From a virus (taxonomy: Duplodnaviria > Heunggongvirae > Uroviricota > Caudoviricetes), in the IMG/VR virus record IMGVR_UViG_2609460344_000022: a DNA stretch of 40,873 nt, one strand, 5' to 3'. The notes under the pieces are model-generated. The model searched no databases. It saw only the letters and a list, made by a program, of their open reading frames with translations, and was not told the origin of the DNA. How positions within the stretch are numbered: the first letter of the stretch is position 1; each line of letters begins with the position of its first letter. A program made the position numbers and the translations under genes. Positions 12,623 to 13,891 of this stretch are shown here, piece after piece.

Positions 12623-12775
12623 ACAACACCAACCGCAGCAGCCTGAAGCCGATTGGGTTAACCCGGAGATACCGGGACCGTCTGTGAAGATGTGCAGTCA
12701 CACCAATGTGCAGTCACACCAACCGCAGCAGCCTGAAGCCGATTGGGTTAACCCGGGAGATACCGGGACCGTCTG
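12623..12775. repeat. Two ~58-bp direct repeats plus a 15-bp tandem repeat between cII and O-like gene
   Basis: 'caccaaccgcagcagcctgaagccgattgggttaacccgg(g)agataccgggaccgtctg' at ~12627-12684 and ~12717-12775; 'tgtgcagtcacacc' x2 between; a third, interrupted copy lies inside the O-like gene at ~13466-13550. Confidence 0.85.
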
Positions 12776-12808
12776 CGGTATGGAGTAAATCTTGTATGCG
12801 AGGGGACT

Positions 12809-13891
12809 ATGCGTAATTACGCAACAATTTCACCTCAGTTCTGGTTAGGCGATACAGGGCGAAAACTAAGGAAGTCTGGTCCGGAAAGTATGGTAGTGGC
12901 GTTGTATATGATGACCTCGCCTCATTCCAATATGCTGGGCCTTTATTACCTGCCTGTTTTGTACATTGCTCACGAAACCGGACTTGATCCTGAAGGGGCT
13001 TCTAAGGGGCTTCAAATGGCTTGCGAGGCTGGTTTTTGCAGCTATGACCATGATTCTGAGGTTGTATGGGTGCATGAAATGGCAGCATGGCAGGTTGGTG
13101 AATCGCTGAAACCTGGCGATAACCGTTGTGCTGGGGTAAGAAATGAATATTCCGCGTTGCTGGAAAATCCTTTTTTATCATCCTTTTATGATAGATATAA
13201 GGATGATTTCCATCTGGATGTCAGACGTGAATCATGTCGGAAAATTGAAGCCCCTTCAGAGCCCCTTTCAAGCCAAGAACAAGAACAGGAACAGGAACAG
13301 GAAAGAGATAAAACCCTTCTGGTCCATGGCGAAAAAATCGCCACGGACCCACAGGGGGATTCTTGCCCCGTTCTGACTGAGCGTCCAGGACCAACTGGCA
13401 CGACACCGGAAGCAGATTCCGGGCGTTGTGTGCAGCAGGTGCTGATCGTCGAACCGGAGCAACAGCACCAACCGCAGCAGCCTGATGCCGATTCCGCGAT
13501 GAGCGGGAAGCCGATTGGGTTAACCCGGGAGATGCCGGGACCGTCTGCGGGACGAGTTGATTATCCTGACGTGTTCGAACGGGTCTGGCGTGAATATCCG
13601 CATCGGGCAGGGTCAAACCCGAAGAAATCCGCGTTCAATGCCTGGAGGGCCAGATTACGCGAAGGGGTGTCACCGGATGTCGTGCTGGATGGCGTGAGGC
13701 GTTACGCAAGATACCTGGAGGCTACCGGGAAAGCGGGAACTGAATTTGTTCAGCAGGCATCGACGTTTTTTGGCCCGAACAGGAATTTCGAAAATCCGTG
13801 GTCGCTGCCGAAGGCTGGCGCAGTCAGCCTGCGTTGCGTGAATCACATTTCTGAACCGGACACCGAAATTCCGCCGGGTTTCAGGGGGTAA
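12809..13891 (+). CDS. Replication initiation protein (O-like, putative)
   Basis: 360 aa; first gene after cII, followed by DnaC-like loader; internal QEQEQEQEQE linker and iteron-like repeat copy. Confidence 0.55.
   Translation: MRNYATISPQFWLGDTGRKLRKSGPESMVVALYMMTSPHSNMLGLYYLPVLYIAHETGLDPEGASKGLQMACEAGFCSYDHDSEVVWVHEMAAWQVGESLKPGDNRCAGVRNEYSALLENPFLSSFYDRYKDDFHLDVRRESCRKIEAPSEPLSSQEQEQEQEQERDKTLLVHGEKIATDPQGDSCPVLTERPGPTGTTPEADSGRCVQQVLIVEPEQQHQPQQPDADSAMSGKPIGLTREMPGPSAGRVDYPDVFERVWREYPHRAGSNPKKSAFNAWRARLREGVSPDVVLDGVRRYARYLEATGKAGTEFVQQASTFFGPNRNFENPWSLPKAGAVSLRCVNHISEPDTEIPPGFRG

Follow-up and report, generated by a model that had tools for sequence, protein, structure and literature searches.

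The long direct repeats around rep in an Eru4-type lambdoid replication module are probably an unstable duplication of rep linker DNA, with a candidate origin inside the gene

The 40,873-nucleotide stretch of Caudoviricetes DNA in IMG/VR record IMGVR_UViG_2609460344_000022, referred to here as the window, contains an early-right region of lambdoid organization, with a cI-like gene, a cro-like gene, cII, an open reading frame (ORF) of 72 amino acids (aa), the replication initiator gene rep and a gene for a DnaC-like helicase loader. Three copies of a long direct repeat lie in this region, two upstream of rep and one within it. A sequence-only reading of the window had described these copies and had offered two interpretations, either an iteron-type origin of replication placed partly outside the initiator gene, or the trace left by a partial duplication or by recombination. 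The features on which the analysis turns are as follows.

12809-13891, plus strand: rep, coding for the replication initiator (360 aa; 'Eru4' type; match to phrog_1701 'DnaD-like helicase loader' with E 3e-152)
12619-12684, plus strand: upstream repeat copy 1, short form, without a 23-bp piece and with a 1-bp deletion (CCCGGAGATA instead of CCCGGGAGATA)
12690-12721, plus strand: tandem pair of a 16-bp unit (ATGTGCAGTCACACCA twice), separating copies 1 and 2
12716-12778, plus strand: upstream repeat copy 2, short form
13458-13550, plus strand: in-gene repeat copy 3, long form, coding for part of the variable Rep linker (aa 217-248)
12993-13013, plus strand: box cluster 1, candidate iterons formed by a pair of exact AAGGGGCTTC boxes at 11-bp spacing
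13150-13209: local GC minimum of 0.32 between the two box clusters, candidate unwinding region
13247-13267, minus strand: box cluster 2, AAGGGGCTTC and AAGGGGCTCT 11 bp apart, candidate iterons
13274-13303, plus strand: A-rich (CARGAA)5 run directly 3' of cluster 2, encoding QEQEQEQEQE and kept in relatives

All three long copies were found where the sequence-only reading had placed them, and the small palindromes it had noted in each, GGGTTAACCC and a CCCGG-N5/6-CCGGG inverted repeat, are likewise present throughout. The homology of copy 1 to copy 3 begins at AGCAACA (12619), and copy 3 carries 23 extra bases at 13494-13516 (CCGCGATGAGCGGGAAGCCGATT) with GCCGATT at either end. One long repeat plus the 32-bp tandem-pair spacer forms an upstream unit of 90 bp; the tandem element itself is a 16-bp sequence present twice, and not one of 15 bp as had been given. 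A 24-nt core (GCCGATTGGGTTAACCCGGGAGAT) occurs exactly twice in the window against zero expected from 100 shuffles; an exact search cannot bridge the 1-bp deletion of copy 1, which for that reason was not counted. The interval assigned to the upstream copies, from cII to the initiator gene, was right, but its description as intergenic must be qualified, since the 72-aa ORF is called over them. The possibility that the 32-bp spacer is a further piece of the rep linker was rejected, as 17 of 1000 shuffles scored at least as high as the local alignment and the match consisted mainly of a shared CACCAACCG. A consensus scan found no promoter between 12556 and 12808, returning only a minus-strand terminator in cII and a weak hairpin at the copy 3 end, and an Rfam scan (E <= 1) of 11000-14500 gave no relevant RNA element.

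Rep is laid out as an N-terminal domain (N-domain, aa 1 to about 145), a QEQEQ run, a variable linker and a C-terminal domain (C-domain, aa about 250-360). The distribution of the long repeat was followed in a sample of 80 viral loci whose encoded proteins include a relative of the Rep N-domain, together with annotated phages; 88 loci were compared, and the 800 bp upstream of each were aligned by BLAST against the rep ORF of the same locus. No repeat shared between the upstream sequence and the ORF was detected in 70 of the 88. A linker-derived upstream repeat was found only in the window and in the near-identical loci L001, L003, L005 and L010-L012; in the remaining loci, outside the lineage of the window, the upstream repeat was a cluster of short AAGGGGCT boxes and was not derived from the linker. 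A 19-nt core (GCCGATTGGGTTAACCCGG) was present in 37 viral-contig stretches, every one with one or two upstream copies and one in-gene copy. The long repeat is confined to one shallow lineage of E. coli and Shigella phages, that of the Eru4 module, and is missing in more than 40 diverged N-domain relatives. The region is 98-99% identical to that of Shigella phages 75/02 Stx and POCJ13 (Stx, Shiga toxin) and of Escherichia phages PhiR5_2 and phiSTEC1589-Stx1c, and the locus is also found in about 80 complete E. coli genomes (the upstream region in 81, the 5' half of rep in 78).

Homologues of copy 3 reside in rep genes that have no upstream copy. Tritos-type phages (represented by Tritos itself, L002) match the window only in the 3' part of rep, from about 13318 and with 83% identity from 13410, and their N-domain is unrelated to that of the window; their linker comprises a full copy-3 homologue, including the 23-bp piece and with GGGTAGTCCC replacing GGGTTAACCC, and there is no upstream copy. 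Loci L013-L016 encode an N-domain of the same family as that of the window (74% identity) and the same C-domain, and have a copy-3 homologue with the 23-bp piece in the linker; they lack an upstream copy, and their upstream neighbourhood differs from that of the window. In the Klebsiella relatives L006 and L009 the copy-3 segment of the linker is wholly absent, and both the N-domain and the C-domain are kept. At the other extreme, L005 (E. coli 23CRST049) has three upstream copies with a period of 113 bp, each of them with the 23-bp piece.

Because the 23-bp piece is present both in the Tritos homologue of copy 3 and in the upstream copies of L005, it is ancestral and has been lost by the upstream copies of the window; its earlier description as an insertion into copy 3 reversed the direction of the change. 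The loss presumably came about by slippage between the flanking GCCGATT repeats, and a comparable loss is seen at 13407-13440 of the window relative to Tritos. Two 1-bp indels that compensate each other bound a stretch of shared linker DNA which is translated in one frame in the window and in another in Tritos (SGKPIGL versus QREADRV), indicating that the linker peptide is weakly constrained and tolerates changes of frame. The frame-shifted stretch extends over 13494-13545 in the window and 2575-2625 in L002 (SGKPIGLTREMPGP versus QREADRVVPENTGQ). On these comparisons, copy 3 is the source type of the long repeats.

The repeats are unstable within the lineage. Two upstream copies were counted in 29 loci, one in five (L003 and four others) and three, all long, in L005, and three short upstream units were recognized in a 102-aa form (P0001) among the protein clusters of the overlapping ORF; the 16-bp unit is present once, twice or five times among relatives. 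The upstream copies of L005 bear the alleles of its own in-gene copy, namely GATGCC and the 23-bp piece, with 98.9% identity over 87 bp, which indicates, at the level of sequence, that upstream and in-gene copies have exchanged sequence. In L004 (E. coli SW071611) an upstream copy is joined to copy 3 and the 5' two-thirds of rep are deleted; 5' of the junction the copy is of the upstream type and lacks the 23 bp, 3' of it the in-gene allele GGGCGATGCC…GCGGG is found, and the crossover lies inside GCCGATTGGGTTAACCCGGG, a core common to both. The rep gene of L004 is annotated as frameshifted with a missing N-terminus, and this deletion variant has probably lost the origin as well as the initiator. 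The palindromes are broken by singleton variants in L122 (GGGTTATCCC), L001 (CCCAGGAG), L098 and L005. Segment-wise diversity gave no sign of special conservation of the upstream copies, which are no more uniform than their non-coding flanks; their nucleotide diversity (pi) of 0.0017 equals that of the adjacent non-coding DNA. The most variable parts are copy 3 (pi 0.012) and the neighbouring linker (pi 0.033). Variable copy number, orthologues of the source in genomes without the duplicate and products of recombination between copies, all expected of a segmental duplication, were thus found together, in agreement with the second of the two earlier interpretations.

An iteron-type origin is expected to consist of short (about 10-22 bp), phased and compact repeats, to adjoin an AT-rich unwinding element and to be co-inherited with the DNA-binding domain of the initiator. 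The long repeats depart from this pattern throughout: their units measure 59-93 bp, with start-to-start distances of 90/91 and 772 bp; unit and spacer lengths differ between relatives; and the GC content over the repeats (0.55-0.65) makes them the GC-richest part of the region, the closest low-GC stretch (13150-13209) being separated from copy 2 by 370 bp and from copy 3 by 250 bp. Diverged relatives of the N-domain are without them, and a homologue is found in Tritos alongside an unrelated N-domain. Size, spacing, base composition and distribution are therefore all contrary to the first of the earlier interpretations, the iteron-type origin, and a better candidate lies between the copies.

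A repeat search of the window recovered a 23-nt inverted repeat (12993-13015 and 13245-13267) which resolves into two plus two AAGGGGCT boxes with an 11-bp period, the exact box 10-mers occurring three times inside 275 bp of the 40.9-kb window. Relatives have two or three boxes per cluster with the same period. The GC minimum, the lowest value in the whole region, falls between the clusters and holds a 13-nt palindrome (ATCATCCTTTTAT/ATATAAGGATGAT, 13177-13207), and the A-rich (CARGAA)5 run that follows cluster 2 has an AT skew of +0.56 to +0.64. The boxes are retained at +181/+195 and +415 to +475 of rep in relatives down to about 43% protein identity, among them Klebsiella, Acinetobacter and metagenomic phages, and their conservation along with the putative DNA-binding domain exceeds what coding would require. 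Of 43 non-redundant relatives, 40 have cluster 2 (28 on the minus strand, eight on the plus strand and four in mixed orientation), and the peptides it encodes vary with orientation and frame (EGASKGL, EAPSEPL, SPLQAPSKPL, RGFEGAFKGL). Third-codon-position entropy along the N-domain is minimal at the two clusters (1.0 and 0.9 bits, versus 1.5-1.9 elsewhere). In L009, the most diverged N-domain examined (28-35% identity), AAAGGGTT boxes occupy both equivalent places. Acinetobacter-type loci (L008, L022, L023 and similar) have a third AAGGGGCT cluster at -37 to -13 from the rep start, so that in this family the box array can lie partly outside the gene.

Tritos rep has boxes of another kind, GTCACG, repeated every 10-11 bp and grouped into two clusters separated by 260 bp (L002 2037-2075 and 2297-2345). 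The second of these is followed by an A-rich 12-bp repeat, (ACAGATAAAGAT)n (L002 2344-2380), right behind which homology to the window starts; this repeat occupies the same position as the (CARGAA)5 run. The Tritos boxes are a candidate for that phage's own in-gene origin, positionally equivalent to the AAGGGGCT boxes. Given the co-variation of box and N-domain and the swap in Tritos, two exchangeable modules can be told apart, one for specificity that consists of the N-domain and its boxes, and a second made up of linker and C-domain; the (CARGAA)n run marks the junction of the two. In E. coli relatives this run, and the QEQEQ it encodes, varies in length (a 592-bp query gave matches of 586-615 bp), and with a pi of 0.03 it is among the most diverse segments.

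Searches of Rep against Pfam, NCBIfam and PDB sequences gave no domain match, including none to Pfam Phage_rep_O. In an AlphaFold model of the N-domain (mean predicted local distance difference test score 84), a helix at 50-57, a helix at 61-73 and a hairpin at 77-88 are predicted, a helix-helix-hairpin motif; the stretch for which cluster 2 codes is modelled as disordered. A weak resemblance of Rep aa 336-360 (13814-13888) to the C-terminal tail of E. coli DnaT was also observed (PDB 2ru8, 6aep and 9zbt, E 0.008-0.026; NCBIfam DnaT, E 0.009). It probably explains the annotation of such proteins as 'primosomal protein I', and this part of Rep may contact the helicase or its loader.

We consider it likely that the long repeats are a lineage-specific, unstable segmental duplication of rep linker DNA and that the origin is formed by the in-gene AAGGGGCT boxes. 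The most likely position of the origin of an Eru4-type replicon is inside rep, at about 12990-13300, between the long repeats, and we infer that the boxes, and not the long repeats, would be the binding sites of Rep. The events would have begun with the copying of a piece of about 90 bp of weakly constrained linker-coding DNA, of the copy 3 type, to the junction of cII and rep, where it would have been amplified in tandem along with the 32-bp spacer. As the natural variants show, upstream units have since been gained and lost through slippage or unequal recombination, the 23-bp piece has been dropped, presumably by slippage between the GCCGATT repeats, and sequence has been swapped between upstream and in-gene copies; recombination of an upstream copy with copy 3 removes the N-domain of the initiator and the intervening DNA. 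For initiation, a winged-helix-like Rep N-domain would bind the boxes, and the DnaC-like loader would then be recruited via the Rep C-domain.

Several observations weigh against this account. The four isolated phages of the module (75/02 Stx, POCJ13, PhiR5_2 and phiSTEC1589-Stx1c) all retain two upstream copies, and the E. coli counts (81 upstream regions, 78 5' halves of rep) are compatible with at least one upstream copy for every intact rep of the lineage, so that the upstream array may have an auxiliary role specific to this lineage. The lineage, at 95-100% identity, is too shallow for conservation of the repeats to argue for or against a function. The fold matches of the N-domain are weak as well (Foldseek, best E 0.014, template modelling score about 0.3-0.38), and, almost all of them being to winged-helix DNA binders, they are taken as a hint of such a fold.

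The strongest competing explanation, which we regard as unlikely, is that the long repeats serve the origin in cis, either as iterons or as auxiliary sites for Rep or a host factor. The upstream array and copy 3 would then bracket the DNA coding for the N-domain and would aid assembly of the initiation complex or regulate it, for instance by looping or by titration of the initiator as known from plasmid iterons. This reading would account for the palindromic sub-motifs common to the three copies and for the presence of at least two upstream copies plus copy 3 in every isolated phage of the lineage; a box cluster just 5' of the start codon in Acinetobacter-type relatives of the N-domain means that upstream origin elements are not foreign to the family, and the initiator of SPP1 binds two separate repeat regions (PMC6316719). 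However, the units far exceed the length of iterons, are not helically phased and have no adjoining AT-rich tract, and they are missing both in all diverged N-domain relatives and in L013-L016, which share the same rep architecture. Where the C-terminal module has passed into phages that have other boxes and an unrelated N-domain, the copy-3 homologue has gone with it; the GGGTTAACCC palindrome is not retained in Tritos and is broken in natural variants; and there is free variation in the number of copies, in spacer length and in internal indels. It is quite improbable, in a related vein, that the long repeats are a functional addition peculiar to Eru4, serving either as auxiliary sites, which would loop the upstream array to copy 3 around the in-gene origin or titrate a factor, or as a recombination switch, whose crossover would take out the origin and the initiator N-domain and render an inducible Stx-type prophage replication-dead at a measurable rate.

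A further alternative concerns the 72-aa ORF. In our view it is very unlikely that the upstream region holds a genuine small gene or leader ORF (phrog_2751) whose product or translation modulates rep, for example by translational coupling. Relatives share the ATG at 12570, each has a called ORF of between 42 and 102 aa, and in two of three frames the ORF stops 20 nt 5' of the rep start or overlaps it (…GDYA* ends in ATGCGTAA). Yet there are ten variants with at least three C-terminal frames; near-identical relatives differ in the ending (TGTVCGME, PSAVWSKSCMRGDYA, LTRRYRDRL) as well as in length and frame, and in L005 the ORF is truncated at 41 aa and is unannotated. In its N-terminal part, outside the repeats, the window and L005 differ by four substitutions, all of them non-synonymous. 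The Shine-Dalgarno sequence of the ORF is poor and rep has a strong GAGGGG of its own; there is no match in Pfam or NCBIfam, only a PHROG of predicted ORFs, and no larger protein with the same N-terminus was found. Since length, frame and C-terminus shift with each repeat variant, the repeat part encodes no conserved protein, and the ORF as a whole is probably not a conserved protein. The notion that its N-terminus is a remnant of a larger protein was dropped after a large-scale search of proteins yielded nothing beyond ten small ORFs from E. coli.

Least credible of all is the proposal that a short form (ORF start, repeat and C-domain, as in L004) was ancestral and that a cassette of N-domain and origin entered by a single circular-DNA crossover at the repeat, leaving direct repeats; a Campbell-type insertion does leave direct repeats around a cassette, phrog_18526 is a family of proteins of about 157 aa that match Rep residues 207-360 only, and the short-form fusion would be in frame if the repeat were of the long form, but the L004 gene is out of frame, carries a pseudogene annotation and has the in-gene allele on its 3' side, as for a recent deletion, and full-length rep genes with N-domain, linker and C-domain but without an upstream copy occur in several lineages, which makes the full-length gene the older state.

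The preferred account, duplicated linker DNA flanking an in-gene origin, can be set beside known systems. In lambda, the origin lies in the middle of the initiator gene O, with initiator-binding repeats beside an AT-rich tract (PMC7466680). The order of cI, cro and cII, initiator and helicase-loader gene is common to lambda and the window, as is the placement of the boxes, the AT-rich stretch and the A-rich run at the end of the part coding for the N-domain, copy 3 lying in the linker-coding part. Unlike in lambda, however, the initiator is not an O homologue and its partner is DnaC-like and not P; the boxes are about 10 bp long with an 11-bp period in two clusters about 250 bp apart, whereas lambda and its Stx variants have four to six iterons of about 19 bp in one array. 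The long repeats, for their part, differ from the lambda iterons in size, spacing and context. Gp38 of SPP1 binds direct repeats in its own gene 38 (oriL) beside an AT-rich element, and there is a second repeat region, oriR (PMC6316719). Boxes within the initiator's own gene are a point of likeness, and the Tritos-type relatives, with GTCACG boxes in the gene, are annotated 'replisome organiser'; in contrast, no sequence relationship to the N-domain of the window is detectable, and the second 'site' of the window, the upstream array, derives from the linker and not from box sequence. The long repeats resemble variable-number tandem repeats and duplication scars at phage mosaic junctions in their copy-number polymorphism, slippage indels, exchange between copies and direct-repeat deletion. 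They differ in that the duplicated piece comes from inside an adjacent essential gene, so that recombination between copies takes out the initiator N-domain and the probable origin at once.

The Eru4 region of Shigella phage 75/02 Stx is the same module as that of the window, at about 98% identity, and this phage serves as the type for 'Eru4' among the replication regions of Stx phages; Eru4 was defined by gene content alone, with the rep product termed 'unknown function' and with no mention of repeats, iterons or an origin (PMC8951638). Our literature searches found no mapped origin or iterons for the Eru4 module. Identity with the module of the O104:H4 Stx2 phage was ruled out, as that phage is of type Eru1 (helicase/Toprim) (PMC8044961); a 100% match in O104:H4 genomes must consequently belong to another prophage. 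The other genes of the region are listed here.

11069-11773, minus strand: cI-like repressor gene (Peptidase_S24)
11887-12120: cro-like gene
12259-12555, plus strand: cII (Pfam Phage_CII, E 6.5e-26)
12570-12788, plus strand: 72-aa ORF over the upstream repeats (phrog_2751, function not known)
13898-14638, plus strand: gene for the DnaC-like helicase loader, the partner of rep in the replication module (IstB_IS21 and Bac_DnaA ATPase)

The stretch conserved with other lambdoid phages extends past cII to about 12600, and because the lambdoid-conserved module ends there, the repeat array begins at the junction of the cII and rep modules. Within the 3' end of cII, a strong hairpin resembling an intrinsic terminator lies on the minus strand (12504-12531) and is conserved with lambda and P22-like phages; it has the appearance of a terminator for an antisense RNA of the oop type, and a consensus scan found no promoter. 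The roughly 45 bp that follow the hairpin align with the ribosome-binding site and start codon of P22-like orf48, the ATG there being CTG here. Among 18 haplotypes of 12259-14100, diversity is distributed in blocks; it is high in cII (pi 0.021), the linker (0.033) and the 5' end of the dnaC-like gene (0.028), and low in 12556-13270 (about 0.002-0.008) and in the part of rep encoding the C-domain (0.0009). This pattern suggests recent mosaic exchange of sub-gene blocks inside the lineage.

Eru4 is one of the common replication types in the Shiga toxin phages of E. coli and Shigella, and the output of Shiga toxin depends on phage replication. A plausible but probably wrong assignment of the origin to the long repeats is removed by this analysis; the repeats themselves would be an ordinary unstable duplication. 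The more useful result is a specific origin candidate for Eru4, of the known in-gene iteron kind: four AAGGGGCT boxes with an AT-rich core and an A-rich run, the boxes being kept from enterobacterial to Acinetobacter phages. The direct repeats that flank it offer these prophages a one-step route to the loss of both the initiator N-domain and the probable origin, and so bear on whether a prophage of this type can replicate.

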